NCBI GenBank assembly: GCA_016720835.1
Contig: JADKJW010000001.1
Coordinates: 390,776 to 454,775, forward strand
Length of the DNA stretch: 64,000 bases
DNA from: Ignavibacteria bacterium
Lineage (GTDB): Bacteria > Bacteroidota > Ignavibacteria > SZUA-365
Direction of reading: 5' to 3'
In this document: positions 7,763-60,285 of the stretch, piece after piece
Position numbering within the stretch: the stretch's first letter is position 1
Layout of the letters: the number at the start of each line of letters is the position of its first letter
Made by a program: the position numbers and the translations under genes
Notes under the pieces: model-generated
What the model saw: the letters and a program-made list of their open reading frames with translations, nothing else
Told to the model about the DNA's origin: nothing
Database searches by the model: none

Positions 7763-7840
7763 CTTCTGACTTCTGACTTCTGACTTCTGACTCCTGACTT
7801 CTGACTCCTGAATTCTGGATTCCTGAATTCTGGATTCCTT
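7763..7840. repeat. tandem heptamer (TTCTGAC)n followed by (ATTCTGGATTCCTGA)x2
   Basis: Direct reading: agcTTCTGACTTCTGACTTCTGACTTCTGACTCCTGACTTCTGACTCCTGAATTCTGGATTCCTGAATTCTGGATTCC. It lies in the intergenic region between the TBDR-like gene and the LamG gene. Confidence 0.8.
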
Positions 7841-17624: not shown

Positions 17625-17662
17625 GACAATCTACTCCCAACTCCCTACTCCCTACTGCTTTT
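17596..17662. terminator. hairpin shared by convergent gltX/glnS 3' ends (perfect 13-bp stem GGGAGTTGGGAGT / ACTCCCAACTCCC, extendable to about 20 bp, followed by CTTTT on + strand)
   Basis: Inverted repeat read directly. The gltX stop codon lies in the loop and the right arm sits immediately 3' of the glnS stop. Confidence 0.5.
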
Positions 17663-19343: not shown

Positions 19344-19525
19344 GGGAATCCCGATGTGATACCTCGTTGCTCGCCAATACAAGAACGCCGCCAGCATCGG
19401 ACGGCGTAGACTCTCAATCTAACGAAATCCCGCCGTTGGGCAATGAGCATGGAGTATCACGAAGATGCAATGACAACACCCAGTCCCCTCTTGCCTCCCG
19501 CCCCCGCAACCGCTAGCTTGCAGGC

Positions 19526-25819: not shown

Positions 25820-27042
25820 TCACCTGATCAACAGGATAGTGCCCGTTTCCGTCCTGCCGTCGGCGATGAAGCGGTACACACAGACACCTGTGGGGACTGA
25901 GGGCAGCGGCGTAAATTCCACTGCATGCGCGCCGGCTTCGTATTCACCCTCGGCAAGTGTGGCGATTTCTCTTCCGAGCAGAGAATACACGCGGAGAGAC
26001 GCCCGCATTCTCGATGGGAGTGTGAACGTGAACGTGCTGCTGTGGCTGAATGGATTCGGGTAGTTCTGCGCCAGTGTGGGCGTCTCCGAGAGGACAGGCT
26101 GGGCGTCGATAAGTTCGGAGAGCGGACGGCGCCACAGCGAGGTGTAGGTACCTGCGAAAATATACTGAGGCGTAATGGCAATCGCGCGAATCGTGTTCGT
26201 TGGGATGTTGTCTGTAATGTTTTTCCAATTCCTTCCCAAGTCTGTGGAGAGGAAGAGACCACTGTGATAGGTACCGGCAAAGAGGTTGGAACCTGCCACG
26301 GCCAGGCAACCGATGAGATTGTCTGTGATGCCGTTGGAAGCGGCTTCCCAAGAGGTGTCGGTTTCGGACAACATGTACACCGCGTCACCAGTGCTGGCAA
26401 AAACACGGCCGGCGCACGATGCGAGTGCCGTCATGACTTGTGCAGATCCTTCCAGCCCGGAAGGAATGGACTTCCAACTCCTGCCGGAATCGAGCGAACG
26501 GTATACGCCTTCACCTTGGGTACCCAGGTATATTTCGATACTCGTACTGAGAATAGAATAGTAATCCATGTATACGGCTGAGCGCAATATCCCTGAGTCG
26601 GCACGTACCCACGTGATACCGAAATCGGGTGACCGCCAGACGCCCTTGCGATGTGTGCCCGCCACCATCCCCCAGGAATCCACCAACAGGCAACTTGTTT
26701 GTTCTTCGAATTGCTTCGTGTCCGCTCCACCCATGTCTTGCCAAAATCACTGGTGCGGTACAGCCCATCACCCATCGCGGCATAGAGTGTATCGTGATAC
26801 AGCGCCATGGTACTGACACCTTTCTTCATTGTTGAATCAGGTGGCAGCCAGGATTGTCCCTCATCGGGAGATTGAATGATACCTTTGGCCTCCTGGTAGC
26901 CGTACACTCGGGCGCCATGAGCGATTACATACGTTGTCTTGTTGCTGTCGCATAGCAGCCATTGGGCTTGCATGAGTTGTATACATGCGCAAAGAAGTAG
27001 TGTCGAAATGAAAGACGTTTTCATCGCAGAGTCGAGCTTCAC
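25820..27042 (-). pseudogene. BNR/Ycf48-like beta-propeller T9SS cargo protein, split by an apparent frameshift near 26735
   Basis: ORF 26431..27042 has the signal peptide MKTSFISTLLLCACIQLMQAQ and TSDFGKTW. ORF 25820..26734, in another frame, continues with SPDFGITW, SLDSGRSW, STDLGRNW and ends with the T9SS CTD AQNYPNPFSHSSTFTFTLPSRMRASLRVYSLLGREIATL...GVCVYRFIADGRTETGTILLIR. The second piece has no signal peptide of its own. Paralogous to 1330..2616. Confidence 0.55.
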
Positions 27043-30989: not shown

Positions 30990-30990
30990 C

Positions 30991-32679: not shown

Positions 32680-32742
32680 TTCATACTCCTGTCATTGTTG
32701 TGTACGGGGAAGCTACGTTGGGTCGGACCGATTGTCAACGAT

Positions 32743-33358: not shown

Positions 33359-36070
33359 ATGCCCAGTTTCGCGACACGCACCTCCCTCCTCCTCATCGTC
33401 CTCTCGCTCCTCGCGGCCGACGCCATAGCGCAGGATGCGCAACGAGACCATTTCCGCAAGCAGGAAATGCAACGCGCCGGCAGTCTCGCCAAGCGCCAGG
33501 CGCGCACGCTCGCGGGCGCCGCAGATTACGACGTGATCTCCTACCGTCTCACGCTCGCGATGCCCATGCTCGAGAACGGCACCTTCGGCGGGAACGTGGT
33601 CATGCGGATGAAGAGCACGGTGGACGGCCTCTCGAACGTGGTCGTGAACGCCGGCGCGAATCTGCGCGTCGACAGCGTGACGTCGGAAGGCGCGAAGCTG
33701 CTCTTCACCCATGTCGGCGACACGCTGAAGGCCACGCTCGCGTCGCCCGCTTCGAAGGGCGCCGCGCGGGAAATCACCATGTATTACAGCGCCCCGTACA
33801 CCGGCAGCGCCATCGCCGCCAAGCCCGTGACGAACGTCCCGCTCAACGTCCCCACACTCATGATCGCCTCGCAGTCGGAGCCTTACGACGCGCGCAACTG
33901 GTGGCCCTGCAAGGACGATCCGGCGGACAAGGCCGACACGGTCGATCTCATCTGCACCACGGACTCCTCGCTCTTCTGCGTCAGCAACGGCAGCCTCGTC
34001 TCCGACGTGAAACATGCCGACGGCACGCGCACCATTCACTGGCGGTCGACGTATCCGATCGCGACCTACCTCGTCTCCGTCGCGCTCGCGCAGTTCTCGT
34101 CGACGGAAACCACCTTCACGCACGGTGGAAAAACCATGCCGGTAAACAACTGGTGGTACTCGATGCAGGCGGCGCAGATGCAGCCCAGCGCCACGGCAAT
34201 GATGGAGGGATTGCAGTTTTTCTCGGATCGCTTCATCACGTACCCGTTCATCAACGAGAAATACAGCATGGCCGAATACGGGGCCTTCGGCGGCGCGATG
34301 GAACACCAGACCTGCACGTCGATGGGCTTCTACGGCGTCGGCGTCACCATCCACGAACTGGCCCACCAGTGGTTCGGCGACAAGGTCACCTGCGCAAACT
34401 TCGAGCACATCTGGCTGAACGAGGGCTGGGCCACCTACTGCGAGGCCCTGTTCGAGGAATCGAAAGGCGGCCTCGAAGCGCTGAAAAACAACATGGCCGG
34501 CAACGCGTACTTCGGCCCCGGCACGATTTACGTGTACGACGCGCTCGACAAGAACATGGGACAGATCTTCAGCGGCGACCTCAGTTACAACAAGGCGTCG
34601 TGGGTGGTGCACATGCTGCGTCACGTGGTGGGCGACAGGAATTTCTTCCCCGCGGTGAACACGTATCTCGGCTCGGACGCGCGCGAGAATTGCCGCAGCG
34701 TCACGACCCAGGAATTCCAGGGCTTCCTCGAGCGCGAGAGCGGCATGAACCTGACCCAGTTCTTCAAACAGTGGATATACGGCGACTACTTCCCGACGTA
34801 TCGTCTCGCCTGGACATCTTCGCCTTCGGGCGGCGTCACGAATGTGACCGTGACCATCGATCAGCTGAATACTCCGACGCGTCAGGTCTTTCACATGCCG
34901 ATCGACCTCACCTTCTCGCTGCCCGGCGGCGACACCACCGTCGTCGTGCATGACTCGCTCGCGACGCAGGTCTTCACCTTCGCATTCTCGGAGAAGCCGA
35001 CCACCGTGCGCCTCGACAAGGACAACTGGATCCTGAAGCGGGTGGTGCAGCCCATCAGCAACCCGACCTTCGACAAGGGCATCCTCCTCGTCAACGGCGT
35101 CGACTGGGACACGTACGCGACGGATCCGCTGAAGCAGTGCTACGAGGACTCCGTGTTCACCGGCGACAAACCCTACACGTTCTGGGATCTCTTCCCGAAT
35201 CCCGGAAGCGGCTATCCGCGCAACATCACCGCTCCCGCGGGCATCGGCGCCGTGCCGCCCGAGGAACTCGGCAAGTACTGCACCGTCGTGTGGGTGGGCA
35301 ACGCGTATGGCGGCGACGAGGCCGTCTGGCAGAACTCGAACATCTGGGAATACCTGAAGGCGGGCGGCAACGTCATCCTGCTGACGCGCCAGGGCAGATT
35401 GTTCATCACCGCCGAACTCGTGAACTTCACGGGTCTCACCTGGTCCACCGGACAGCAGCCGCCGCTCGAGGAATGCAAGGCCGAGCAGACCTGGCTGATG
35501 GACCTGGCCTTCACCGGAGAACAGAGCCTCGTGCACGCCTTCCAGCCCGCGCTCTCAAGATCGGAGAATGAGATCCTCTTCTCCGACAGCAAGGCCTTTG
35601 CGTCGAAGCAGGCGCTCGGCCTCTGGGCGAAACCGATGAGCGTCGGCGGCAAGCAGACGGGGCAGATGGTCTATATCGGCGTGCGGCCGTACCGCGTCTC
35701 CATGTCGCTGCTCAAGCCGGACATGCAGACGATACTCGACCGCATGCCCTGTGTGCCGCTCGTCAACGGCACGGATGCTGCCGGTCTGCCCCAGGGTCTC
35801 GCGCTCGCGCAGAACTATCCGAATCCGGTCACTCCCGCGAACAGCACGACAGCGATCGACTTCACGGTTCCCGGATCGTCACAGATGCAGGTCACGCTCG
35901 CCGTGTTCGACGCCCTCGGCCGCCGCGTCGCGCTGCTCGTCGATGCCGCGCTCGTGCCAGGTTCGCACCACGCATCTCTCGATACGCGCCCGCTCAGTGC
36001 CGGCGTCTACACCATCAGGCTCAGCGCGGGCGGAAGCGATGCGGTGCGAACGATGACGGTGGTGAAATAA
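33359..36070 (+). CDS. M1-family aminopeptidase (aminopeptidase N-like) with C-terminal T9SS sorting domain
   Basis: Signal peptide. GAMEHQT...HELAHQWFGDKVTCANFEHIWLNEGWATY (GxMEN-like and HExxH-x18-E motifs). CTD AQNYPNPVTPANSTTAIDFTVPGSSQMQVTLAVFDALGRRVALLVD...GVYTIRLSAG. Confidence 0.88.
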   Translation: MPSFATRTSLLLIVLSLLAADAIAQDAQRDHFRKQEMQRAGSLAKRQARTLAGAADYDVISYRLTLAMPMLENGTFGGNVVMRMKSTVDGLSNVVVNAGANLRVDSVTSEGAKLLFTHVGDTLKATLASPASKGAAREITMYYSAPYTGSAIAAKPVTNVPLNVPTLMIASQSEPYDARNWWPCKDDPADKADTVDLICTTDSSLFCVSNGSLVSDVKHADGTRTIHWRSTYPIATYLVSVALAQFSSTETTFTHGGKTMPVNNWWYSMQAAQMQPSATAMMEGLQFFSDRFITYPFINEKYSMAEYGAFGGAMEHQTCTSMGFYGVGVTIHELAHQWFGDKVTCANFEHIWLNEGWATYCEALFEESKGGLEALKNNMAGNAYFGPGTIYVYDALDKNMGQIFSGDLSYNKASWVVHMLRHVVGDRNFFPAVNTYLGSDARENCRSVTTQEFQGFLERESGMNLTQFFKQWIYGDYFPTYRLAWTSSPSGGVTNVTVTIDQLNTPTRQVFHMPIDLTFSLPGGDTTVVVHDSLATQVFTFAFSEKPTTVRLDKDNWILKRVVQPISNPTFDKGILLVNGVDWDTYATDPLKQCYEDSVFTGDKPYTFWDLFPNPGSGYPRNITAPAGIGAVPPEELGKYCTVVWVGNAYGGDEAVWQNSNIWEYLKAGGNVILLTRQGRLFITAELVNFTGLTWSTGQQPPLEECKAEQTWLMDLAFTGEQSLVHAFQPALSRSENEILFSDSKAFASKQALGLWAKPMSVGGKQTGQMVYIGVRPYRVSMSLLKPDMQTILDRMPCVPLVNGTDAAGLPQGLALAQNYPNPVTPANSTTAIDFTVPGSSQMQVTLAVFDALGRRVALLVDAALVPGSHHASLDTRPLSAGVYTIRLSAGGSDAVRTMTVVK

Positions 36071-42317: not shown

Positions 42318-43400
42318 ATGCGCCCTCCCGTGTATTCCATTCCAGTCCCCCGGATTGTCCGGTGCGGTATTTTCCTGGTCGTCCTCGCCATCTTCCCTGC
42401 TCTTGCGTCGAGGGCGCAGGGTCCGGGTGCACTGCTCTTTCCCGGCGAAGGGCATCTGCGGAACGTGCGGCAGCTCACCACTGAAGGCGAGAACGCCGAG
42501 GCCTATCTCTCTTTCGACGAGAAAGCGCTGACCTTCCAGTCCCGCCCCGCTGGCGCGGAATGCGACCGCATCTTCACCATGTCGCTCGACGGCGGAAACG
42601 TGTCGATGGTCAGCTCCGGAAAGGGCCGCACCACCTGTTCGTACTGGCTTCCCGATGGCGAGCATCTGATTTTCGCGTCGACGGAAGCCCACGATCCCGG
42701 CTGCCTTCCTCCCCCCGATCGCAGTCACGGGTATGTGTGGAAGCTGTATCCGGAGTTTGACATTTACTCGATACGGAAAGACGGCACGGGATTGAAAACG
42801 CTGTTCGCGTCCGAAGGGTATGACGCCGAAGCCACCGTCTCCCCGCTGGGCGACCGGGTGGTCTTCACATCGACGAAGACCGGCGACCCCGAAATCTACA
42901 CGATGAATATCGACGGGAGCGATGTGAAGCGGCTGACCTTCGAGAAGGGCTACGACGGCGGACCCTTCTACACGCCGGACGGAAAGAGCATCGTCTTCCG
43001 CGCGAGCAGGCCGAAAACTCCCGAAGACATGAAGGGGTATGAAGAACTCGTCAAGGACCATCTGGTCCGTCCCACCGCGCTCGAAATCTGCATCATGAAC
43101 GCCGACGGGAGCAACCTGCGGCAGATCACGCGCAACGGCGCCGCGAACTTCGCGCCCTTCATGCATCCGGACGGCGCGCGCATCATCTTCTGTTCCAACA
43201 TGGACGCCTCCAACCGGCGCAACTTCGACCTCTACATGATCCGCGTCGACGGCACCGGCCTCGAACGAATCACGACCTACGGCGAATTTGACGGCTTCCC
43301 GATGTTCACGAGGGACGGGAAGCATCTGGTATTTTGTTCGAATCGAAACAACAGCAAGCCCGGCGACACGAACGTATTCATCGCCGAATGGGTCGACTAA
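42318..43400 (+). CDS. TolB-like / WD40-like (PD40) beta-propeller repeat protein, secreted
   Basis: Signal peptide MRPPVYSIPVPRIVRCGIFLVVLAIFPALASRAQG. Repeated PD40-like units (LSFDEKALTFQS, WLPDGEHLIFAS, VSPLGDRVVFTS, YTPDGKSIVFRAS, MHPDGARIIFCSN, FTRDGKHLVFCSNR). Confidence 0.75.
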   Translation: MRPPVYSIPVPRIVRCGIFLVVLAIFPALASRAQGPGALLFPGEGHLRNVRQLTTEGENAEAYLSFDEKALTFQSRPAGAECDRIFTMSLDGGNVSMVSSGKGRTTCSYWLPDGEHLIFASTEAHDPGCLPPPDRSHGYVWKLYPEFDIYSIRKDGTGLKTLFASEGYDAEATVSPLGDRVVFTSTKTGDPEIYTMNIDGSDVKRLTFEKGYDGGPFYTPDGKSIVFRASRPKTPEDMKGYEELVKDHLVRPTALEICIMNADGSNLRQITRNGAANFAPFMHPDGARIIFCSNMDASNRRNFDLYMIRVDGTGLERITTYGEFDGFPMFTRDGKHLVFCSNRNNSKPGDTNVFIAEWVD

Positions 43401-43419
43401 CCTGGAATCAAGGACCGAC

Positions 43420-45228
43420 ATGAGATCGACACGCATCTGCACCTTCCTGCTCATCGCGGGAGCACTCCTCTCCACAGCACGCGCGCAATCCGTCGCTCCT
43501 CCGCCTCCGGGCTCCACCACGGCGGTCACGAAGGAGGATATCGGCTACCACGTGCGCTGGCTTTCCTCGGAGGCGCTTGAGGGACGGGGCACAGGCACCC
43601 GCGGGAATGCCGTCGCGGCCGAGTATCTCGCGCGCGAATTCAAGCGGTACGGACTGAAACCCGCAGGCGACAACGGCTCGTATCTCCAGACGTTTGAGGT
43701 CGTGACGGGCGTCGATCTCGGGAGAAACAACCGTTTCTCGCTTACCGCGGCAGGGAGCGCGAAAACACTGGCGGTGCAGAAGGACTACGTCCCCTTCAGC
43801 TTCTCCCATTCGGGCGAAGCCACAGGCGGCATCGTCTTCGCGGGATATGGCATCACCTCCGCGAAACTCAAATACAACGACTACGAAAATGTCGACGTCA
43901 AGGACAAGCTCGCGCTTGTCGTTTCGGGTCATCCGGACGGAGACAGCCCGCATTCCGATTTCGACAACGTGGCCTCCATCCGCAGCAAGGCGCTGTTCGC
44001 CCGCGAAGCCGGCGCCTCCGCGCTGCTGGTCGTGAATCTGGAGAAGGACGAGCTGTACAAGCTGAAGTACGACAATTCTCCGAGCAACGCCGGCATCATC
44101 GTCGTCAACGTCGGCAAGGAGATCGTCGAAACCCTCTTCAAGGCCAACAGCCAGGACCTCAAGAACATCCTCGAGAAGATTCAAAAGGACAAGCGCCCGA
44201 TGTCGTTCGCGATGACGGACGTGCACGCCGCCCTGACGGTCTCGGTGTCGTACGTGAAAAAACCGTCCATGAATGTGATCGGGAAACTCGACGGCACCGA
44301 CCCCGCCCTGACGGAGCAGTGCTTCGTCGTCGGCGCGCACTTCGACCACCTCGGATGGGGCCAGGACGGTTCGCTGTACCGCGGCGAGAAGCCGATGATC
44401 CATCCCGGCGCGGACGACAACGCCTCCGGCACCGCGGGCATGCTGGAACTCGCCCAGTACTTCGCCGCGCAACCGCTGCGCCGTCCCATGCTGTTCATGG
44501 GCTTCACCGGCGAGGAAATGGGTCTCCTCGGATCATCGCACTGGGTGAACAATCCGAGCACGCCGCTCGCCTCCATCGCGGCCATGTTCAACCTCGACAT
44601 GGTCGGCCGCCTGCCCGACAGCACGAACAAGCTCAACGTGCAGGGCACGGGCACGTCCCCGATCTGGGAATCGATCGTCAAGGGCGCGAACGAACCGTAC
44701 AACTTCACCCTCGCGATGCTGCCCGACGGACAGGGCGCGAGCGATCAGGCCGCCTTTTACATGAAGAACATTCCGGTGCTCTTCTTCTTCACCGGCCTGC
44801 ACACCGATTACCATCGGCCGTCGGATCAGTTCGACAAGCTCAACCTGCCGGGGGAGGAAAATGTCATTCGTTTCACGGCCGACATCATCCGGAAAACAGA
44901 TGAACAGGCCGACCGGCCCGCGTTCGTGAAAGTCGTCGTCAAGGAAGATCAGAAAGTGCGCGGCTTCAACGTGTATGTGGGGACCATCCCCGATTACGGC
45001 TCGACCGAGGAAGGCTTCAAGATCACGGGAACCAGCCCCGGCAGCCCCGCGGAGAAAGCGGGACTGAAACCGGGCGATCTCATCGTGCAGTTCGGCTCCA
45101 CGAAGCTCAAGAATATTTACGATTACATGAACGCCATGGGCAAGTACAAGCCCGAGGAGGACGTCCCCCTCGTCGTCAAGCGCGGAACGGAGACGCTCAC
45201 CCTGACGGTGCATCTGGTCCGGAAATAG
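43420..45228 (+). CDS. M28-family zinc peptidase with PA domain and C-terminal PDZ domain
   Basis: Signal peptide. GAHFDHLGW...HPGADDNASGTAGMLELAQYF...FMGFTGEE. C-terminal GSPAEKAGLKPGDLIVQFGSTKL PDZ-like. Confidence 0.85.
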   Translation: MRSTRICTFLLIAGALLSTARAQSVAPPPPGSTTAVTKEDIGYHVRWLSSEALEGRGTGTRGNAVAAEYLAREFKRYGLKPAGDNGSYLQTFEVVTGVDLGRNNRFSLTAAGSAKTLAVQKDYVPFSFSHSGEATGGIVFAGYGITSAKLKYNDYENVDVKDKLALVVSGHPDGDSPHSDFDNVASIRSKALFAREAGASALLVVNLEKDELYKLKYDNSPSNAGIIVVNVGKEIVETLFKANSQDLKNILEKIQKDKRPMSFAMTDVHAALTVSVSYVKKPSMNVIGKLDGTDPALTEQCFVVGAHFDHLGWGQDGSLYRGEKPMIHPGADDNASGTAGMLELAQYFAAQPLRRPMLFMGFTGEEMGLLGSSHWVNNPSTPLASIAAMFNLDMVGRLPDSTNKLNVQGTGTSPIWESIVKGANEPYNFTLAMLPDGQGASDQAAFYMKNIPVLFFFTGLHTDYHRPSDQFDKLNLPGEENVIRFTADIIRKTDEQADRPAFVKVVVKEDQKVRGFNVYVGTIPDYGSTEEGFKITGTSPGSPAEKAGLKPGDLIVQFGSTKLKNIYDYMNAMGKYKPEEDVPLVVKRGTETLTLTVHLVRK

Positions 45229-51033: not shown

Positions 51034-54000
51034 GTGGCTATGAACAAGCGATTCTCATTCGCGCTGCTCGCGCTGCTGTTCTGTTCGACCGCGGCGCTCG
51101 CGCAGGACGCACTCCCGACACCCCGCTTCGTGCCTCCCGAAATTCGCGGGAACGACGCGCAGGCCTTCTACAAGGACATGGCGATCATCGAAACGAACTG
51201 TTCCGACTGGACGGAAGTTCGCGCGTTGTGGAAACAGCTCACGGAAAAGGGCGCGCTCATCTCGGTGATCGCCTCGCCGAAGCGCTGGATCGGCTGGGTC
51301 CCGACCGAATCGAAGGATGCCGTCGGCAGCGCCCGCTTGAACAGCGCGACGGGCTCCCTCGGCGTGACCTCGATCTCGTATACTGCCGCTGAATTTCGGA
51401 CCAAACACTCCGGCATGCAGCTGCAATCGACCAGCGAAGAGGAATCGGCCCTCGTGGAGTATCTGGAACACGCGAAGCACACGCGGACGCCGGAGGAACT
51501 GCAGCGCATCGAGGAGCGCACGCGCGAACTCGATCTCATTGCGCCGACCGTTCAGCAACCGCCGTGCGTCTTCACCAATCCCGAGCCGATCCCCCTGCCC
51601 GAAACGGCCTCATCGCCGAAGGGACCCTCCACGCAGGGCGGCGCCAATCCGTCGATCACTCGCAGATCGACACCGCAGGGACTGATCGTCCACACGAGCG
51701 TGTTCCCGGAGAGCCAGAGCGGGACAGGATCCTGGAACTGGGACATGACCGTGTACAACCGCTACCGCAATCTCCATCTCGACGCGATGCACTACTGGAC
51801 GGCGCAGGCTTCCAAATACGGCAAGAGCGCGACCCTGATCTGGCGCCTCTACGGCCCCACCCACTGGTGTTCGCAGGTATCCGGCGAACCGACGGTCATC
51901 GGGGAACACACGTTTATTCCGGTCATCCTCAACAACATCTATCCACCCGACGTCTGGGACATCCTCTTTGGACGCATCCCGAACTGGAACGGAAGCAACG
52001 GCCTGGACCGCGGCGACGCGTGGGGCTGGTACTACAACAATAAAATCCGGGACTATTTCGGGGCGGACCAGGCAATTTGCGCCTTCATCGCGTGGAAAGG
52101 CACCCCGAACGAGGGGATCTGGCCGCACGCCCGCTCCGTGACATGGGGGAACGGCGACCACGAAGGCATCTACTACGCGATGGATGTGCGGTACTGGCAG
52201 GCCGGGCTCGACCCCTATGCCATGCCCAGCCGCAATGTCTGCGCGCATGAAATCGGCCACCTCTGGGGCTCGCCCGACGAGTACCGCACGGACAATTGCA
52301 CGTGGTCATACCGTGGAGCCGAAAACATCAACTGCCAAACAACCCGGCCGACGGCCCCGGGTCGCCCGGGCTACAAGATCGTCGGTTTCGACGCGATGAT
52401 GGTCGGGAATTATCTCTCGGGTTCGAGTTCCGTCATGCCCGTGCACATGGGCCTGCTCACTGCGGGACAGCGGACGCCGTTGCGCTGCTTCACATCGCAG
52501 CCGGCCAACATTCCCATCACGCTCCACATTTGCGACAACAGTTCGCATGCGCTGTCCACACGCACGCTGACGGGTCCGACCTGTGTGCCGATGGAATGGG
52601 ACTTCTGCTATAAAACCGAAGTCCCGCTCACACGCAGCATTTCCGGGTCGACGTGGTACTTCGACCATTTCGAAGTGAAGCGCGAGAACGGCGCGACCTC
52701 GAACATCGACGACTACGCGAACAACATGCCGTCCTACGCGTTCACCTCGACGCAGGCGAATCCCGTCACCGACGTCAAGGCGGTGTACACGAATACCCCG
52801 CCCGATTTCAATACTGCCAACACCTCGATCACCGCATGGCTCGCACCGGCGGGCAATTCCGCGACGCCAAATCCCGCGGTCGCACTGCGTTGGCGAAACA
52901 AGTACGACATGCAGAAGGTCGTGACGAAAATCGAATGGGAGCGCACTGCAGGGACATGGGTGGAAGTGCAGCCCGTGCTCGGACCGTTCCCGGTCTCGAT
53001 CGGGCAGTACACCGGAGTGATCATCACCGCGCTCCCGCTTGCGGGAGGAGGTACCACGGCCGTGGCGGCAAACACGCAGTACCGCTTCCGCATTGTGGGC
53101 ATCTTCAACACGATCCGCGGCACCAACAGCGTGGTCGCCGAAATCCGCACGCGCCCGTCCTCACCGACGGATACGGTCTATTGCAGGGACGCGCAGGAGC
53201 CGAATTCCGCGGCTTCGCCGAAGGTCCTCACCTCGTCCGGCCCCGGCATGGCGCCGTATCTCTTCAAGGCGGCCTGTCCGATCTCGATGATCACCGGCGA
53301 GTTCACCTGGTTCAGACCCAAATACGACTACTATCGCGTGACGGCCATCAACCTCAGCAACGTGACGGGCGGCGAGCGTCTCACCCTGGTGCTGCACGTG
53401 AGCGACGGCTCGAAATTCAAACCGGTGTTCCGCGCGAAAATGGCGGGCAGTTCCACGTACATCAATTCGTCGAGCGGCGGCCCGGGGTATTACATCCTGT
53501 CGCTGTCGGTGGACGGGACGTACGACATCAGCGTCGAACCGGAGATCAGCTCCTTCATCAGTTATCGCCTCATCGAACCGTCGACCGGCGACTTCGGGTT
53601 CGGCGAATATACCATCAGCGTCGATCGGACCTACAACAAGCCGCCGCTCGTCGCATTCTGTCCGACATGCGTCAAGGTCAGCATCCTCCAGCCTATCAGC
53701 GGCCTGTTGATCTCGAAAGCGCCGGGCGATCTGTTCGACAAGGGCGTCGATAAAAACACGCCGGGACTCTTCGATGTGCTGTTCCACCCCCCGGCGGGCT
53801 TCATCTTCGACGGCTGGGATCTCCCCAAGCCCGAGATCCTGGAAGATCCGAAAGCGAACCCGACCAAATTCAAGTACGGCCCGAATACGCCGCCGGGAGA
53901 ATACGAACTCGGCGCGAAATTGAGACCGGTGGCGCAGGGTCAGAACGAACTCGTGGTCATCTTCCCGCAGGGACCCGACGGTCCCTTCGAGGCCCGCACG

Positions 54001-56148
54001 CTGCATTCGACTGGCGCGGTCGTGAACGTGACGGCGCCCGCGAATCCGAACTACCTCTTCCTCGGGTGGAGTCACGACACCGCCGCGACGACGAATCCTC
54101 TTCCCGTCACGATGTGGCGCAGCAAGAAACTCATCGCCACGTGGAGAGAGAAGCCGTGCCAGCCGGAACCGATGGTGAAGTGGGTGCATCGCGCAACGCT
54201 GACCAACGCGAAGAACGGCAGCGTCACCATCGACTACGGCATGGATCCGAGCGCGGGTGACGGGCTCGAAGCGGGGCAGGTGGACCTTCCTCCCATTCCG
54301 CCTCCGGGACCGTTCGATATCCGTTTCATCAACATCACCGGTTCGCAGGGAAGCATCAGCGATCTGCGCGCGATACAGCAGTCATTCATCTATCTGCTGC
54401 GCGTCCAGACCGGAACCACCGGCACCGCGCCCGTGCAGATGACCTGGGGCGCGCCGCCGGTTTCACCGAACGCGACGTTCTTCCTGTACGTGCAGGGCGA
54501 ACCCGCGCCGTTCAACATGCGCACGACATCGAGTTACACCTTTGCCGCGGAAGGCACGTACAATTGCCGCATCGAAGTGAAGATGCCGGAGTGCCCGCCG
54601 AAATCGAAGGAACCCGAAGTGGTCATCGTTCCGACGCGCAACGATCCGACGCGCTTCCCCTGCGTGGAACTGGCGATGCAGTTCCGCGACCGCAAGACCG
54701 ACATGCTCTATCCGCTGTACAACCCGTATCAATTCCATCTCTTCGAGAAGAACGACGATGGCGGGTGGGGCCCGATCCGCATCACCGAAATCGTGCAGCT
54801 CCCGACCATGACGCTCTTCCGCATTTGTACGGACGAAGGGAGCCCGAAACCGAATCGCGAGATCGTCATCGTCAACGACGATCAGGATCCGGACACGAAG
54901 AAGGACACGATCACGGTCAATATCCCCGTGCCGAATCCCACCGGGACAGGCACTCCTGTCCGCTTCGTGCAGCAGCATAGCGGAGACTGGGAGCTTGTCT
55001 CGATTCCGCTCGAGGTCAAGTACCCTGAATCGAACGTGATCTTCTCCGATCCCGCGACGCTTCTCTTCCGGTTCGATACGAACACCGGATATTACTTCTC
55101 CGTGCCGAAGATGACGTTCGGTGAAGGCTACTGGTTGAAGACGAACGATAAAGCCACGGTCTACTACGGGATGGAGAAGCTCATCTTCAACTGGGACACG
55201 CTCATCGGTATCGGGCAGCCCTACGGCTACGGCTGGAATCTCATCGGCGCGGTGTCGAAACCGCTCGCCGTGGCCGCGATCCAGCAGACACCCGCGGGCG
55301 GTCTCAAGGCCATCTTCGGCTACAATCCCGCGTCGGGCTACGTCGTTCCGACCATCGTCAATCCCGGACAGGGCTTCTGGGTCCGTGTCGACCCGAACAC
55401 GAAACTCAAGATGCAGGCGCCCGGCGTCGCCGGACCGCCGACCGTCACAGCATACGCGAAGACCGCGGCCAGTCTGAACGTCATTGCCAACCTGGTGTTC
55501 ACCACTGCCAGGAATGAGCGCCAGGAACTGCCGGTGACGACCAGCCGCATCTCCGCGGCCGATGTCGACAACCTGCTCCTTCCGCCGCTTCCCTACGGGT
55601 CGGGACTCGATGTCCGCACCGAGGCGGGAACGCGGTACATTCCGTTCGGCATGACCGGCATCGATATTCGCAGCCAGATCGATGTGAAGGTGACGTTCGA
55701 ACCTGTCGTCGCGACGCAGGACCGCTATCAGTTGCTCGACGAGAATGACGCCGTTCTGGCGGAATTCAGCGGCGCGCAGCCGGTGACGGTCACCGTCCCC
55801 GCATCGAACGCGCACCGGATCTTTCTGAAGACCATGACGTCCGGAATATCCGGCAACTTCGCCCTCGACCAGAACTGGCCGAATCCGTTCTCGCCGGCGC
55901 AGCACGAAGCCACCACCATCGCCGTCACGTTCGGGACGCCGTCGCATGCGCGCCTCGCCGTGTACGACGTGATGGGAAGGCAGGTGCGGCTCCTGCTCGA
56001 TCAGGACCTCCCGGCGGGCATGAAACATCTGCGCTGGGATGGTCGCGACGGGCGCGGGGACCTGCTTCCTGCGGGCACCTACCTGCTGCGCCTGCAGGCT
56101 GCCGAGGGCACGATCACGAAATCGATGACCATCACTCACGCCAAGTGA
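51034..56148 (+). CDS. 1704-aa secreted multidomain protein. N-terminal zinc-metallopeptidase-like domain (HEIGHLWGSPDEY), multiple Ig/FN3-like domains, shared GWNLIG tandem module, C-terminal T9SS sorting domain
   Basis: Signal peptide MAMNKRFSFALLALLFCSTAALAQ. CAHEIGHLWGSPDEY (HExxHxxGxxDEY, reminiscent of M64-type peptidases). Module GDWELVSIPL...GYWLKT...GWNLIGAVS...GFWVRV. CTD NWPNPFSPAQHEATTIAVTFGTPSHARLAVYDVMGRQVRLLLD...GTYLLRLQA. Confidence 0.85.
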   Translation: MAMNKRFSFALLALLFCSTAALAQDALPTPRFVPPEIRGNDAQAFYKDMAIIETNCSDWTEVRALWKQLTEKGALISVIASPKRWIGWVPTESKDAVGSARLNSATGSLGVTSISYTAAEFRTKHSGMQLQSTSEEESALVEYLEHAKHTRTPEELQRIEERTRELDLIAPTVQQPPCVFTNPEPIPLPETASSPKGPSTQGGANPSITRRSTPQGLIVHTSVFPESQSGTGSWNWDMTVYNRYRNLHLDAMHYWTAQASKYGKSATLIWRLYGPTHWCSQVSGEPTVIGEHTFIPVILNNIYPPDVWDILFGRIPNWNGSNGLDRGDAWGWYYNNKIRDYFGADQAICAFIAWKGTPNEGIWPHARSVTWGNGDHEGIYYAMDVRYWQAGLDPYAMPSRNVCAHEIGHLWGSPDEYRTDNCTWSYRGAENINCQTTRPTAPGRPGYKIVGFDAMMVGNYLSGSSSVMPVHMGLLTAGQRTPLRCFTSQPANIPITLHICDNSSHALSTRTLTGPTCVPMEWDFCYKTEVPLTRSISGSTWYFDHFEVKRENGATSNIDDYANNMPSYAFTSTQANPVTDVKAVYTNTPPDFNTANTSITAWLAPAGNSATPNPAVALRWRNKYDMQKVVTKIEWERTAGTWVEVQPVLGPFPVSIGQYTGVIITALPLAGGGTTAVAANTQYRFRIVGIFNTIRGTNSVVAEIRTRPSSPTDTVYCRDAQEPNSAASPKVLTSSGPGMAPYLFKAACPISMITGEFTWFRPKYDYYRVTAINLSNVTGGERLTLVLHVSDGSKFKPVFRAKMAGSSTYINSSSGGPGYYILSLSVDGTYDISVEPEISSFISYRLIEPSTGDFGFGEYTISVDRTYNKPPLVAFCPTCVKVSILQPISGLLISKAPGDLFDKGVDKNTPGLFDVLFHPPAGFIFDGWDLPKPEILEDPKANPTKFKYGPNTPPGEYELGAKLRPVAQGQNELVVIFPQGPDGPFEARTLHSTGAVVNVTAPANPNYLFLGWSHDTAATTNPLPVTMWRSKKLIATWREKPCQPEPMVKWVHRATLTNAKNGSVTIDYGMDPSAGDGLEAGQVDLPPIPPPGPFDIRFINITGSQGSISDLRAIQQSFIYLLRVQTGTTGTAPVQMTWGAPPVSPNATFFLYVQGEPAPFNMRTTSSYTFAAEGTYNCRIEVKMPECPPKSKEPEVVIVPTRNDPTRFPCVELAMQFRDRKTDMLYPLYNPYQFHLFEKNDDGGWGPIRITEIVQLPTMTLFRICTDEGSPKPNREIVIVNDDQDPDTKKDTITVNIPVPNPTGTGTPVRFVQQHSGDWELVSIPLEVKYPESNVIFSDPATLLFRFDTNTGYYFSVPKMTFGEGYWLKTNDKATVYYGMEKLIFNWDTLIGIGQPYGYGWNLIGAVSKPLAVAAIQQTPAGGLKAIFGYNPASGYVVPTIVNPGQGFWVRVDPNTKLKMQAPGVAGPPTVTAYAKTAASLNVIANLVFTTARNERQELPVTTSRISAADVDNLLLPPLPYGSGLDVRTEAGTRYIPFGMTGIDIRSQIDVKVTFEPVVATQDRYQLLDENDAVLAEFSGAQPVTVTVPASNAHRIFLKTMTSGISGNFALDQNWPNPFSPAQHEATTIAVTFGTPSHARLAVYDVMGRQVRLLLDQDLPAGMKHLRWDGRDGRGDLLPAGTYLLRLQAAEGTITKSMTITHAK

Positions 56149-56162
56149 CAGGAGGAAACACC

Positions 56163-57272
56163 ATGAAACGCACACATTTCTTTCTCGTCGCTTTCGCCGT
56201 TTCCTTCTTCTTCGCGATTCCGCACGGTATCGCCCAGGAATTGCGCGGCGTGATGCTCGGCCTCACGGTCTCAAACTTCAACAACCGCAGCCAGAATCTT
56301 TCGATCGGCATTATCGAAGGCGCGTCAAAGGGCATCGATCAGCAGCTCGGAGAACTGGAGCTTCCCCCGTTTCCTCCGCAGGAGATCTTTGACGCGCGCA
56401 TCGCGAGCACGCCCGGAATGTCCTCGCTCGGCACGGGTTCGCTCTCGGACTATCGCCCGGCGAGCCCGTCGACCACCTCATACACCGAGACCTACACCGT
56501 CGCGTACCAGGGAGGCCTGGGCGCGACGAAGGTCAAGCTCGAATGGCAGTTTCCGCTCCCCGGACGCGTGACGAAACTCACCGTCGACGGCACGGATGTG
56601 ACGGCCCTGGCGTCCATCGATATTCCGTTTCCGGGGGGACAGGCGACGGTCGTCGTGACGTACAATTACGCCCCGCTCTCGTTCACAGCGCTTCCGACGT
56701 CGCTCTCCTTCGATGCGAACAACCGCGATGCGCTTCCCTCGAAGCCGCTCGAGATCATCCCCCAGGGCGACAGTCAGGCACAGTGGATGATCAGCTCCGA
56801 TGCCGACTGGCTCAGCCTCGATGCGGGATCGGGCGAAGGCAGACAGACGATCACCGTGGAGGTCAGAACCGGGATCATCCCGACAGGAGTGTACACGGGC
56901 ATCATCACCGTGCGCTCGCTCTTCGATCCGGCCTTCCTCGACATTCCGGTCACGCTGAACTACACGCTCGGCGCGAACGGGGCGCCGCTTCCGGAGGGCA
57001 TGGCGTTGACGCAGAATTTCCCGAATCCCGCTTCGGGGAGCACCGCGATCAGCGTCTCGCTCGGCGTGCAGGCCGCCGTCTCGTCCCCTCCAATCCTGAA
57101 GGTGACCGACATGGCCGGCCGCGTCGTCCTCGACCTCTCCTCCCGGCTGCGCCGTGATCCGGGGCCGCAGACGCTGGCGGTGGACATCGCGTTCCTGCCC
57201 GCGGGTTCATATACGTACACGCTCAGCGGCGCGGGGTATGAAGTCTCGCGCAGCATGATCGTGGTGAAATAA
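56163..57272 (+). CDS. secreted BACON-domain protein with C-terminal T9SS sorting domain
   Basis: Signal peptide MKRTHFFLVAFAVSFFFAIPHGIAQ. BACON-like PTSLSFDANNRDALPSKPLEIIPQGDSQAQWMISSDADWLSLDAGSG. CTD TQNFPNPASGSTAISVSL...KVTDMAGRVVLDL...GSYTYTLSGAG. The start codon overlaps the upstream gene's stop region. Confidence 0.75.
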   Translation: MKRTHFFLVAFAVSFFFAIPHGIAQELRGVMLGLTVSNFNNRSQNLSIGIIEGASKGIDQQLGELELPPFPPQEIFDARIASTPGMSSLGTGSLSDYRPASPSTTSYTETYTVAYQGGLGATKVKLEWQFPLPGRVTKLTVDGTDVTALASIDIPFPGGQATVVVTYNYAPLSFTALPTSLSFDANNRDALPSKPLEIIPQGDSQAQWMISSDADWLSLDAGSGEGRQTITVEVRTGIIPTGVYTGIITVRSLFDPAFLDIPVTLNYTLGANGAPLPEGMALTQNFPNPASGSTAISVSLGVQAAVSSPPILKVTDMAGRVVLDLSSRLRRDPGPQTLAVDIAFLPAGSYTYTLSGAGYEVSRSMIVVK

Positions 57273-57352
57273 TCCTGTCATCACACGGGGATGGCGCGGT
57301 TGTCCCTTTCCGGACGGCCGCGCCCGCCTCGTTCTCAATCAGAAGGTTCTCC

Positions 57353-60202
57353 ATGAAACGCATTGTCGGCGTTCTCCTGCTCTTCATCGGATGTTTCGCG
57401 CCGCGTGACGCGAGCGCGCAATATTCAGCGGTCAACGAGGCGCTGTCGCTCACCGGTGCGGGGTATGTCTCCATCCCGTGGGCAAACGCATTCAACGGGC
57501 AGCTGAACCAGATCGGGATGTTCAGCATCGATGCCTGGGTCTATCCGAGTTCGCTCTCCGGATACATGACCGTTGTCGGCAACGACTACGGTGTCGGGTA
57601 CTGGCTCGGCGTCACTCCGACCGGCAAGATCCGTTTCTACCCGCGAGGCGGCCTGTACTACGACAGCCCGGGGTCGATCCCCAGCGGACAATGGTCGCAC
57701 ATTGCCGACTCGTTCAACGCGCGGAAGCAGACTCTCTCCTTCTACATCAACGGGGCGCTCAACGGTTCCGTCGGTGTTCCGCAGGGCGGTGTCGGAAGCG
57801 TCACCGGCGGGGATCTCCGTATCGGCGCGGATCGATCGGGCGGATCACCGGCGTACTACTGGAGCGGCATGATCGATGAAGTGCGACTCTGGACTGAGGA
57901 GATCAATTTCTCGTCGGCAGTCGGGCTGCTGTATCGCGTACCGCATGCGGTCTACAACGGACGCTACGGCAAGTACCTCGTTGCCGGCTGGCGCCTGAAC
58001 GGAAGTGAGACGGGAATCGACAATCAATTCAACGGGACTCTCACCGGCACGAGCAGCTACGCGAGCGCCCCCATGCCGCCGCATTACGCCCGCATCTGCG
58101 CGTCCTTCTCGAACCTGCAACCGCTCGCCGCCGCGGGAACCGACGATTACTTCGCGATCCCCAGTTCCTCGGGAAACGCGCTCGTCCAGAACTACACTCT
58201 CGAGTGCTGGGTGAAGCCCACGTCGACCGGCGGAAGTCCGACCTATCAGACCTTCATCTCGAAGGGATCGCAGTATGCGGGTTCGTGGTCGTACTGGGTC
58301 GGGCTCAACAAGGCGAACAGCAAGGTGCGCTTCGTCCCCAACGGCGATTTCACCGACGGTCTCGAATCGTCCACCACCATGCCGCTGAACCAATGGACGC
58401 ATGTCACCGCCCGGTATCTGGTTTCGGGCAACACGCGCACCGCGACGCTCTTCTTCAATGATGTCGTCGTCGGAACGAAATCCTATTCCAGAGACGCGAC
58501 CCCGAATCAGAACGCGGTGCTGATCGGCCGCGCGGACTATGCAGGCACGCCCGTGAACGGCTACGGATTGTCGGGCTTCCTCGACGAAGTGCGCATCTGG
58601 AACACGGCGCGCAGCAACACGGAAATCATCAACGCCTACCGCATGGAATTGACCGGTCCGGTGACGAATCTCACCTCCTCGTACCACTTCGACGGCGATG
58701 TCCTCGACGCGTCCGGAAACGGAAACAACGGCGCGCATACGCTGGCCGCATCCGCGGACGTGACCTTCAACGACGCAAGCGATCTCCCCGCCATCCCGAC
58801 CGTCCAAGTGCTGCTGCCGAACGGCGGCGAAACCTGGTTCACCGGCAGCACACGCTCGGTGCAGTGGGCTTCCAGCGGCCTGCAAAACGTGCGCATCGAG
58901 TTGTCGCGCGACGGCGGGCAGACCTATGGCGAAGTGCTCACCCCCTCCACGCCCGCGGCGACAGGCGCATTCAATTGGCTGGTGAGCGGTCCCGTGACCG
59001 CCACCGCACGCGTCCGTGTCACCACGACGACGCCGACCTCCCTCTCGGATGAAAGCGACAAGAACTTCAGTATCGAGGACCCGCCGCCGACGCTCAGCGC
59101 GACGCCGTCGTCGCTGACTTTCGCCGCGGCGCAAGGCGGAGTGCTCCCGCCATCGCAGCGCATCCGCCTCAAGAATACGGGAGGCGGGACCCTGAGCTGG
59201 AGCGCCAGTCCCGGCGCAACGGCCTGGCTCAGCCTCAACCCGACGGCGGGAACCGCGAACACGGACTCCTTCGATGTGTCCATTCTTGACTCGAACCTTC
59301 CGGAAAATTCGTATAGCGCCGTCATGACCATCACCGGAAATTTCTCGAACTCGCCGGTCACGATACCCGTCGTGTACCGCGTGACGAAGAAACTCATCTT
59401 CTCGATCTCCGGACGCGTCACGATCGGATCGACGCCGCTCGCGAATATCGTGATCCCGATATTCGGCGACGTGAACACCTCCGCAACAACGGACATCAAC
59501 GGGTACTATTCCGCCACGGGACTGCCGCAAGGCGACTATGCGCTCGCGCCTTCCAATCCCTTCTACGATTTCACTCCCGCCTCGCGCAATTACGCGCCGC
59601 TGAACAGCAATGTCACGGACGCGGACTTCAACGGACGGTCGAAGCGAGGCAGGGCGATGCTGCGGTATCGCGAAGGGTGGAACCTCATGTCGCTTCCGCT
59701 CAATCCCGACATCACCGATCTGGGGTTGCTCCTTCCGGCCGCGAAGCTGCCGGCGTATTTGTTCGATCCCGCAAAGGGGTACGTCGAAACGACGACGGTC
59801 GGTTCCAACAAGATGGTGTTCTGGGTCAACTGCTCGCGGACCGACAGCACGGAGATCAGCGGTGAACTGCTCCCCGCCGTGCAGCATTCCGTCTCCTCCT
59901 CCTACGGTGGATGGAATCTGATCGGGGCGCCGAGCGGTCCCGCCTCCGTCGCGGCGATGGAACAGTTTCCCTCCGGTCTTGCGGTCGCGATCTATGAATA
60001 CGATCCGCTGTTCGGATATCTTCCACCCATCGACGGCCAATTCCGTCCGGGCCGCGGGTACTTCCTGAAGGCGGCCGGAGACGGAAGCGTCCGTATCACG
60101 GCGGAGAGCGCCTTCGCACCGATCGTCTTCAGGCCGTCGCTGCGTTTCCCCGGTGCTGCAGTGCTGTGGGATCCGCCGCCGCCCCCGCCCCCGTCGCGAT
60201 GA
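57353..60202 (+). CDS. large secreted LamG x2 / BACON / carboxypeptidase-regulatory-like protein with unassigned tandem C-terminal module (paralog of 7957..11112)
   Basis: Signal peptide MKRIVGVLLLFIGCFAPRDASAQ. Collinear with and about half identical to 7957..11112 across the LamG blocks (IDAWVYPSSLSGYMTVVGNDY..., LECWVKPT...LDEVRIWN), PNGGETW...VQWAS, BACON (LTFAAAQGGVLPPSQRIRLKNTGGGTLSWSA) and the C-terminal GWNLMSLP...GWNLIGAPS...GYFLKA module. Confidence 0.85.
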   Translation: MKRIVGVLLLFIGCFAPRDASAQYSAVNEALSLTGAGYVSIPWANAFNGQLNQIGMFSIDAWVYPSSLSGYMTVVGNDYGVGYWLGVTPTGKIRFYPRGGLYYDSPGSIPSGQWSHIADSFNARKQTLSFYINGALNGSVGVPQGGVGSVTGGDLRIGADRSGGSPAYYWSGMIDEVRLWTEEINFSSAVGLLYRVPHAVYNGRYGKYLVAGWRLNGSETGIDNQFNGTLTGTSSYASAPMPPHYARICASFSNLQPLAAAGTDDYFAIPSSSGNALVQNYTLECWVKPTSTGGSPTYQTFISKGSQYAGSWSYWVGLNKANSKVRFVPNGDFTDGLESSTTMPLNQWTHVTARYLVSGNTRTATLFFNDVVVGTKSYSRDATPNQNAVLIGRADYAGTPVNGYGLSGFLDEVRIWNTARSNTEIINAYRMELTGPVTNLTSSYHFDGDVLDASGNGNNGAHTLAASADVTFNDASDLPAIPTVQVLLPNGGETWFTGSTRSVQWASSGLQNVRIELSRDGGQTYGEVLTPSTPAATGAFNWLVSGPVTATARVRVTTTTPTSLSDESDKNFSIEDPPPTLSATPSSLTFAAAQGGVLPPSQRIRLKNTGGGTLSWSASPGATAWLSLNPTAGTANTDSFDVSILDSNLPENSYSAVMTITGNFSNSPVTIPVVYRVTKKLIFSISGRVTIGSTPLANIVIPIFGDVNTSATTDINGYYSATGLPQGDYALAPSNPFYDFTPASRNYAPLNSNVTDADFNGRSKRGRAMLRYREGWNLMSLPLNPDITDLGLLLPAAKLPAYLFDPAKGYVETTTVGSNKMVFWVNCSRTDSTEISGELLPAVQHSVSSSYGGWNLIGAPSGPASVAAMEQFPSGLAVAIYEYDPLFGYLPPIDGQFRPGRGYFLKAAGDGSVRITAESAFAPIVFRPSLRFPGAAVLWDPPPPPPPSR

Positions 60203-60231
60203 TGCGCGTGCCGTCATGCGGCGTATCAACG

Positions 60232-60268
60232 AAAAAACCCGCCCAGGCAGATGCCGGGGCGGGTTTTT
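60232..60268. terminator. bidirectional rho-independent terminator (AAAAAA-ACCCGCCC...GGGCGGGT-TTTTT)
   Basis: 8-bp GC stem flanked by an A-run and a T-run, between the convergent 57353..60202 (+) and 60286..60531 (-) genes. Confidence 0.65.
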
Positions 60269-60285
60269 CATGATCCGGAAAGAAT

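Follow-up and report, generated by a model that had tools for sequence, protein, structure and literature searches.

A conserved three-gene cassette that may encode a dedicated surface protease complex in an Ignavibacteria-like bacterium

Introduction

The gingipains of Porphyromonas gingivalis are cysteine peptidases; the adhesin domains associated with them derive either from the same polyprotein or from HagA. In gingipain–adhesin complexes, an anchored protease is combined with binding domains and carries a type-A C-terminal domain (CTD) of the type IX secretion system (T9SS), type-A cargo being as a rule anchored on the surface (PMC5445135). A different arrangement, the KLIKK–potempin pairs, is found in Tannerella forsythia, where the gene of a T9SS peptidase lies beside a co-inherited gene for a non-catalytic partner; potempins are outer-membrane lipoprotein inhibitors of 98–132 amino acids (aa) and their gene is upstream of that of the peptidase (PMC9890683). 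In polysaccharide utilization loci (PULs) with a SusC/SusD pair, binding modules and degradative enzymes are likewise encoded together. Here we describe a locus that recalls each of these systems in part. It consists of three adjacent genes, called P1, P2 and P3, in a stretch of 64 000 nucleotides (nt; hereafter the window) from a metagenome-assembled genome (MAG) labelled ‘Ignavibacteria bacterium’ (contig JADKJW010000001.1, positions 390 776–454 775).

P1 is a predicted zinc metallopeptidase with a T9SS sorting domain, P2 a small protein with the same kind of sorting domain, and P3 a protein with two LamG domains. Our preferred interpretation, held with moderate confidence, is that the three genes are co-transcribed as a conserved cassette and specify a dedicated surface protease complex of an Ignavibacteria-like bacterium of the Fibrobacterota–Chlorobiota–Bacteroidota (FCB) group. 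Such a complex would resemble the gingipain–adhesin complexes in joining an anchored protease with a type-A CTD to binding domains, but would differ from them by a fixed set of three genes and a LamG partner without sorting domain. With the potempin pairs the cassette has in common a T9SS peptidase gene next to co-inherited, non-catalytic partner genes, and with the PULs the presence, in an FCB-group bacterium, of binding modules together with a degradative enzyme. We found no paper describing this cassette.

Results

Three genes conserved as a unit

The three long open reading frames (ORFs) of the locus (51034–56148, 56145–57272 and 57353–60202, all on the plus strand) are co-directional and closely spaced, as proposed in the original prediction, which was made by reading the sequence alone. 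P1 had been read as a protein of 1704 aa; the ORF is there, but its likely start is the ATG at 51040, preceded by GAGGTGG, which gives 1702 aa (P1 residues are numbered below according to the 1704-codon ORF beginning at 51034). Similarly, the likely start of P2 is the ATG at 56163, preceded by AGGAGG, for a product of 369 aa. With these corrected starts, P1 and P2 are 14 nt apart, without overlap, and P2 and P3 80 nt apart. In GenBank, P1 is MBL0173990.1 (IPP94_01790), P2 is MBL0173991.1 (IPP94_01795), and all three products are annotated as ‘hypothetical’. The trio is not a chance assemblage, because each protein has full-length homologues, at 26–97% identity, in independent assemblies. A search of 5.8 billion proteins returned 37 full-length clusters of P1 homologues (1675–1719 aa, 39–97% identity), all of them from uncultured MAGs and metagenomes labelled Bacteroidota or Ignavibacteria. 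The orthologues of P2 form 16 clusters (363–369 aa, 43–100% identity), and the protein has almost no other relatives; those of P3 are conserved over their full length and all finish with a module, designated GWNL, and a short tail.

Related loci were collected from contigs encoding P1 homologues and by a metagenome scan with the P3 family. In the latter scan, run with the P3 alignment, 6 of the 78 loci proved to be true members of the family, the remainder coding for generic LamG proteins; a scan of genome contigs with P1 alone gave one true relative (L008, which is the same as L001), all its remaining matches being to the sorting domain only. The order P1–P2–P3 is kept in every related locus examined that provides enough DNA, nine altogether, and the synteny on which the original prediction depended is thus real. 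Complete cassettes are seven: L001 (P1 56% identical to that of the window), L002/L003 (46%), L004 (39%), L005 and L006 (both ∼40%), L033 (47%) and, most distant, L031 (26%). Only P2 and P3 are present on the short contigs L035 and L037. The genes flanking the cassettes are unrelated and different in each lineage. Two cassettes of different clades, L005 and L006, lie 200 kb apart on a single contig of 348 kb. Moreover, the matrices of pairwise identities of the three proteins are congruent, with r = 0.97 for P1 and P2, and 0.83 and 0.78 for the two other comparisons. From this congruence and from the L005/L006 pair we conclude that the trio duplicates and diverges as one unit.

Domains shared between the partners

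The three proteins are also related through their domains. The N-terminal domain of P2 is similar to residues 1053–1171 of P1 (hhalign probability 98.8%, E = 5.5e-17; BLASTP E = 2e-5), a domain that matched no Pfam family. Residues 147–268 of P2 correspond to residues 537–678 of P3, i.e. to its BACON_2 region (profile–profile probability 96.9%, E = 1.6e-10). P2 had been described as a BACON protein with a CTD: the CTD stands, but the BACON assignment falls below the Pfam cut-off (17.3 and 15.3 bits, against 25; PF13004/PF19190), even though the region is homologous to a domain of P3 that is itself marginally above it. P2 is, to judge from these similarities, a small mosaic of a P1 domain, a P3 domain and a sorting domain. 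The third relation is the GWNL module, already seen in the original prediction as a GWNLIG element common to P1 and P3: residues 1310–1468 of P1 and 767–923 of P3 are 27% identical (E = 2e-11). The module is about 155 aa long, all-beta and jelly-roll-like, and is made of two tandem halves of ∼75 aa (GWNL...Y.FD..GY...G.GYW). Each of these relations is seen again in the distant cassette L031.

When the GWNL module was taken by itself as the query of a word-indexed search, no homologues were returned. The occurrences of the module were mapped instead by a local search of the fetched loci with a hidden Markov model, which located it in two proteins outside the trio. In another MAG (L009, 7853–11026), an M1 aminopeptidase ends with a GWNL module, a spacer and a sorting domain, as does P1. 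The second is a 646-aa protein without any Pfam match, encoded 4 kb downstream of the L033 cassette (L033, 16610–18547), with a C-terminal GWNL module.

P1 as a predicted zymogen of a metzincin-like family

The head of P1 comprises a signal peptide, a prodomain, a linker and the catalytic domain. The zinc-peptidase motif CAHEIGHLWGSPDEY noticed in the original prediction is found at residues 403–417, and its central part, HEIGHLWGSPD, agrees with the extended zinc motif of metzincins, HExxHxxGxx(H/D). In an alignment of 38 full-length sequences, R400, N401, V402, A404, H405, E406, H409, G412, P414, D415, E416 and Y417 are invariant, so that the residues of the predicted site (H405, E406, H409, G412, D415, E416 and Y417) are all kept; M456 and ten cysteines are invariant too. 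Conservation is near-uniform along the ∼1700 residues, only residues ∼161–200 being weakly conserved. An AlphaFold2 model of residues 24–600 (predicted local distance difference test score, pLDDT, 76; predicted template-modelling score 0.81) shows a compact alpha/beta N-terminal domain, a disordered linker, an alpha/beta catalytic domain with HExxH on the active-site helix, and a beta-sandwich. The predicted catalytic fold matches that of metzincins (a five-stranded sheet with an active-site helix). Its best Foldseek match is the M6 zymogen InhA2, but this match is weak (E = 4e-3, probability 0.41). In a profile search against solved structures of the Protein Data Bank (PDB), the best sequence match is snapalysin, of family M7 (E = 0.024), whose HETGHVLGLPDHY aligns with HEIGHLWGSPDEY of P1, two cysteines following in both; phmmer with residues 1–589 of P1 found nothing among PDB sequences.

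Families M6, M64 and M43 had been suggested for this peptidase, and here the original prediction did not hold: no curated model makes P1 a member of any of them. The best peptidase match in NCBIfam is to the M6 model TIGR03296, with 25.8 bits for a cut-off of 110.8, and covers only residues 356–421 around the motif. Pfam M6, M43, M64, Peptidase_M7 and the NCBIfam snapalysin model did not match P1, and Reprolysin_5 gave 18.4 bits, below its cut-off of 27; nor does P1 match the type peptidases of M43 and M64 in sequence. A profile of residues 24–600 brought 143 relatives at E < 1e-3 from 1.84 billion representative proteins. Among the matches listed, most relatives that retain the catalytic region have the signature HExxH[IL][FW]xAxDEY. 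Many of the relatives have T9SS sorting domains or PKD/immunoglobulin-like (Ig) domains, those tested matched no curated peptidase family, and distant ones match Peptidase_M7 and the NCBIfam snapalysin model weakly.

The closest described enzymes are thus found in two families. The M6 peptidases of the InhA/thuringilysin type (InhA, PrtV) are, as P1 appears to be, secreted multidomain zinc endopeptidase zymogens with C-terminal beta-domains, and share with it a HExxHxxGxPDEY zinc site in which Asp is the third ligand. P1 departs from them by its prodomain of ∼150 aa, which is subtilisin-propeptide-like, by T9SS export, by its dedicated partners P2 and P3, and by a TIGR03296 score under the cut-off. 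Snapalysin, the small neutral protease of Streptomyces, has the aligned zinc motif and the two cysteines after it, but is a single domain of 132 aa, whereas the catalytic domain of P1 has ∼280 aa and is part of a 1702-aa protein. Sequence and model together indicate that P1 is a zymogen, that its active site is of the M6/M7 type, and that it belongs to a metzincin-like family for which there is no curated model; motif and fold would place it in the metzincin clan. At these two levels, P1 has every feature expected of a secreted, activatable zinc endopeptidase. A near-invariant cysteine, Cys56 (51199–51201), is present in the prodomain within a motif ‘IETxC’, and a second conserved one, Cys178 (51565–51567), at the start of the linker; they could serve as a cysteine-switch latency ligand or form a disulfide.

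The stalk of P1

Between peptidase and C-terminus, P1 has about ten beta-domains, then the sorting domain. When ten segments of P1 were compared with Pfam (E ≤ 1), five had no match and four had chance-level or sub-threshold matches, the InlB-repeat segment alone being above cut-off. A likeness of residues 713–880 to a pre-peptidase C-terminal (PPC) domain was considered and dropped for want of support in the Pfam scan.

Such an architecture could suggest that the stalk of P1 and the LamG protein are the functional parts, used for adhesion, aggregation or a surface fibre, and that the peptidase serves in self-processing or maturation only. The uniform conservation over all ∼1700 aa, rather than of the catalytic head alone, is compatible with this, as are the pilin-like and InlB-repeat-like Ig domains of P1. 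The LamG region of P3 also weakly resembles TafC, an archaeal fimbrial protein (E = 1.6e-8; PMC11821415); P3 was rejected as a member of that family, the score being 34 bits for a cut-off of 410 and the likeness limited to the LamG fold. However, the full zymogen architecture and the invariant active site favour a working protease, and no pilin, usher or sortase-type assembly genes are found in or near any cassette. We consider a purely adhesive role very unlikely.

Export signals and the domains of P3

T9SS CTDs had been claimed for P1 and P2, and both proteins score above the NCBIfam cut-off of TIGR04183 (Table 1). According to the Q-rule of Bacteroidetes, exported proteins have Gln at position +1 (PMC5837995). 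In P1, P2 and P3 alike, the mature chain starts with Gln after a site of the AxA type.

P3 has the two LamG domains announced in the original prediction (Laminin_G_3, PF13385, 148.3 bits for the two copies), with putative ligand binding. The possibility that P3 is a lipoprotein, raised by the sequence ‘LFIGC’, was rejected: the Cys is not conserved in the orthologues, the AxA/Q signal-peptidase-I site is. The tails of the P3 family (in the window, 60122–60199, aa 924–949) contain a loose ‘[LV]R[FY]P[GSA]A’ motif and, in several members, a proline run, PPPPPPP. In a protein without a T9SS domain, this tail might direct sorting or anchoring.

Spacing and transcription signals

The gap between P1 and P2 is 10–17 nt in all cassettes. 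That between P2 and P3 is longer, 71–123 nt in the six cassettes whose spacers were folded (the window, L001:16237-16318, L002:16187-16293, L004:16153-16275, L005:16181-16272 and L006:16155-16225), and only 6 nt in L031. A GC-rich hairpin occupies this spacer in six out of six folded cassettes (11–17 bp, z from −2.9 to −5.7); its position is kept but its sequence differs. In the window, ∼20–30 nt separate it (core end at 57324, extended stem at 57332) from the P3 ATG at 57353, too few to accommodate a promoter of P3. As a candidate attenuator or RNA-stability element inside the putative operon, the hairpin would adjust the amounts of P1 and P2 relative to P3. The only U-tailed terminator of the locus comes after P3. 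An A-run on its upstream side makes it bidirectional, and a consensus scan of the minus strand matches it too. A scan with the sigma-70 consensus, which is not suited to the phylum, gave fewer matches than in shuffled sequence. The arrangement is consistent with a tricistronic P1–P2–P3 operon containing an internal attenuator or stabiliser hairpin, and we infer co-transcription from it.

A P3 paralogue and the import hypothesis

The original prediction had drawn attention to a second LamG gene placed behind a TonB-type barrel, with a microsatellite in the spacer. All these elements are present. The barrel gene (5060–7561; CarboxypepD_reg, Plug and OMP_b-brl_3 domains) precedes a P3 paralogue (7957–11112) of 1051 aa, which has an extra BACON_2 copy, scores 165.3 bits for LamG and shows 46% identity with P3 from end to end. 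The pair, at 5–11 kb, is a separate locus, and a link between it and the cassette is not established. The paralogue is nearer to the P3 of L031 (50–53%) than to that of its own genome (43–46%) and may be, judging from these identities, the remnant or an off-shoot of a second cassette type. The microsatellite, (CTTCTGA)n with ∼8–10 copies (7763–7837), could be a site of phase variation or slippage upstream of the paralogue.

A PUL-like system has also been suggested, in which LamG and BACON domains would take up a glycoprotein, the protease degrade it and a TonB-dependent barrel import the products. Besides the paralogue behind its barrel, there is some support from other loci: a TonB-dependent receptor, without SusD, is encoded two genes downstream of the L002/L003 cassette, and a barrel of the AlgE-like type (Alginate_exp, 431–433 aa) comes after P3 in L002 (L002:19163-20464) and L005 (L005:19435-20730), two cassettes of one clade, the two copies being 36–37% identical and without counterpart in the window. 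However, no barrel is conserved with the cassette, and there is none at the cassettes of the window, L001, L004, L006 and L033. Nor is any sensor, regulator or transporter gene conserved with it. Neither the window nor the related loci contain a gene of the SusD type, a hybrid two-component system or an extracytoplasmic function (ECF) sigma regulator; the lack of a SusC/SusD pair within 10 kb, which the original prediction had recognised, extends to all of them, and the cassette further differs from PULs in having no glycoside hydrolase. The suggestion is thus supported in part only, the PUL being no more than an analogy. We regard capture and import on the PUL model as most improbable.

Surroundings of the cassette

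The genes flanking the trio are all on the opposite strand: on the 5′ side of P1, relA/spoT, a metallophosphatase-like gene and truA, the latter directly upstream and divergent; on the 3′ side of P3, a small ORF, a DUF7033 gene, an RlpA-like gene and a mannose-1-phosphate guanylyltransferase gene. Elsewhere in the window, a low-GC island (26000–32700, 0.50–0.54 compared with ∼0.62) codes on the minus strand for an S8 subtilase of 1316 aa (27039–30989) and, adjoining it, a 562-aa protein with a FlgD_ig-like domain (30991–32679); the island may have been horizontally acquired. Further genes specify an M1 aminopeptidase with a T9SS sorting domain (33359–36070) and an M28 peptidase with PA and PDZ domains (43288–45228). 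Genes predicted to act in extracellular proteolysis are numerous in this part of the genome. Two class-I aminoacyl-tRNA synthetase genes adjoin on opposite strands (16197–17624 and 17652–19397), one of the glutamyl type (GluRS-like, with Anticodon_2), the other of the glutaminyl type (GlnRS-like).

Table 1. Features of the P1–P2–P3 locus (window coordinates; cleavage sites are marked with a slash)
Feature	Position	Strand	Description	Evidence
P1 gene	51040..56148	+	1702 aa, T9SS-exported multidomain zinc metallopeptidase zymogen (predicted)	ORF, translation, homologues
P1 signal peptide	51040..51102	+	ends ALA/QD, Gln at +1	read from sequence
P1 prodomain	51103..51543	+	aa 24-170, alpha/beta, subtilisin/PCSK9-propeptide-like fold	
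P1 linker	51544..51663	+	aa 171-210, disordered, poorly conserved	
P1 catalytic domain	51664..52503	+	aa ∼211-490, metzincin-like	
P1 zinc-binding/catalytic motif	52246..52284	+	HEIGHLWGSPDEY, aa 405-417	
P1 middle beta-domains	52504..54189	+	aa 491-1052; pilin-like Ig after catalytic domain; InlB-B-repeat-like aa 992-1040	
P1 internal P2-like domain	54190..54546	+	aa 1053-1171, ‘DLPPIPPPGPFDIRF’ motif	
P1 GWNL module	54961..55437	+	aa 1310-1468	
P1 beta-sandwich spacer	55438..55875	+	between GWNL module and sorting domain	AlphaFold2 model
P1 type-A T9SS C-terminal sorting domain	55876..56145	+		TIGR04183 27.6 bits (cut-off 23); FlgD_ig 30.8 bits (cut-off 27)
P2 gene	56163..57272	+	369 aa, predicted T9SS cargo; signal peptide GIA/QE	
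P2 P1-like N-domain	56259..56627	+	aa 33-155	
P2 BACON-like Ig	56688..56966	+	aa ∼176-268	
P2 type-A sorting domain	57018..57263	+	aa 286-367	TIGR04183 24.1 bits (cut-off 23)
P2–P3 spacer hairpin	57285..57332	+	GC-rich, 13-bp core 57293-57324	dG −39.8 kcal/mol, z −5.0
P3 gene	57353..60202	+	949 aa, LamG/Ig/BACON/CarboxypepD_reg/GWNL; signal peptide ASA/QY	
P3 LamG 1	57461..57901	+	aa 37-183	
P3 LamG 2	58130..58657	+	aa ∼260-435	
P3 Ig		+	aa ∼480-575	
P3 BACON_2	59093..59365	+	aa 581-671	25.2 bits (cut-off 25)
P3 CarboxypepD_reg	59402..59560	+	aa 684-736	
P3 GWNL module	59651..60121	+	aa 767-923, then tail ...LRFPGAAVLWDPPPPPPPSR	
Terminator-like hairpin with U-run	60231..60269	+	bidirectional	fold z −3.6

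Discussion

The picture that we favour can be drawn as follows. P1 would be exported as a zymogen by the Sec pathway and cut by signal peptidase I, then taken through the outer membrane by the T9SS by means of its type-A CTD, with surface anchoring as the probable outcome. The zinc peptidase head, with its snapalysin/M6-like site (His-Glu-x-x-His...Asp-Glu-Tyr), would be held outward on the stalk of about ten beta-domains and become active once the prodomain is removed at the disordered linker. P2 would follow the same export route as P1. Heteromers built from a duplicated self-interacting domain are common, and P1, P2 and P3 may assemble through their paralogous domains, with P2 in the role of adaptor or co-anchor, and P3 would target the complex or bind the substrate by way of its concanavalin-like LamG pair. 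The complex would bind a polymeric substrate and cut it for nutrition. The further secreted peptidases of the window, S8, M1 with a sorting domain and M28, fit such nutritional proteolysis.

Several observations weigh against this interpretation, and its weak point is P3. No T9SS sorting domain was found in P3 (E ≤ 0.1) or in seven sequences of the P3 family, and the family has no conserved lipobox. P1 and P2 are thus T9SS type-A cargo, as far as their sequences tell, and P3 is not. For this reason the original prediction of three secreted surface proteins agrees with the sorting domains of the first two and is unproven for the third, which could be periplasmic. LamG and BACON domains, for their part, are no proof of glycan binding. 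The GWNL module, being found also in the M1 peptidase and in the 646-aa protein, may have a general function at the surface or in ligand binding, rather than serving to dock P1 to P3. As for the enzyme, the Met-turn expected in a metzincin was not located in P1 by alignment or in the model: the invariant M456 sits in a low-confidence loop (pLDDT <50), and the Met of snapalysin aligns with Ser425 (in Ser-Tyr). Finally, the shared modules are no more similar within a cassette than between cassettes (29% and 31%, respectively). Together with the recurrence of the three relations in L031, this means that the domain duplications predate the radiation of the cassette; it also means that there is no direct sequence sign of partner-specific co-adaptation or of gene conversion.

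If P3 is periplasmic, one may ask whether P2, P3 or both do not rather shield the cell from P1, as its cognate inhibitor, chaperone or latency factor, in the manner of potempins. Operons of T9SS peptidases with their inhibitors are known (PMC9890683), and both the missing sorting domain of P3 and the strict retention of the partners with each P1 paralogue would agree with such a function. But potempins are lipoproteins of 98–132 residues encoded upstream (PMC9890683), whereas P2 (369 aa) and P3 (949 aa) are large, downstream, share domains with the peptidase and include one protein that is itself predicted T9SS cargo; the gene upstream of P1 is truA and not that of an inhibitor. In addition, P1 has its own prodomain, and Pfam and NCBIfam scans revealed no likeness of P2 or P3 to known inhibitors. 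A regulatory role of this kind seems to us unlikely.

Another possibility is that the three are co-regulated but physically independent secreted proteins, P1 being a free or surface protease, P2 a small surface protein and P3 a lectin or adhesin, with shared transcription as their only link. The unraised similarity of modules within cassettes would agree with this, as would the occurrence of these modules in other proteins and that of a P3 paralogue outside any cassette. Independence accounts less well for the whole trio having been kept after duplication in one genome, for the tight co-divergence of P1 and P2 in particular, for an order and sizes that remain fixed over P1 identities of 26–97%, and for P2 homologues being nearly all of the cassette size. 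On balance we find it rather doubtful, and prefer the surface protease complex.

A more demanding version of the complex can also be imagined, namely an obligate three-subunit machine in which P1 carries P3 with it across the outer membrane, the GWNL modules docking in the periplasm and P2 bridging the two with its P1-like and P3-like domains. There is little chance, in our opinion, that this is the case. If it were true, it would be the first hitch-hiker export through the T9SS, and P1 would represent a new family of metzincins that have dedicated subunits without catalytic function.

Nothing in the cassette contradicts current understanding. It does raise the question of how a partner without sorting domain reaches its site of action, and it brings to light three items that have no curated family: the HExxH[IL][FW]xAxDEY peptidase superfamily, the jelly-roll module of ∼155 aa and the beta-domain common to P1 and P2. 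T9SS proteases are central to feeding and disease in Bacteroidota and their relatives, and they are usually treated as single-gene cargoes. With partners made of the protease's own domains, the trio offers a defined candidate multi-subunit surface protease that can be put to the test, and it comes from an uncultured lineage often met with in activated sludge and sediments.

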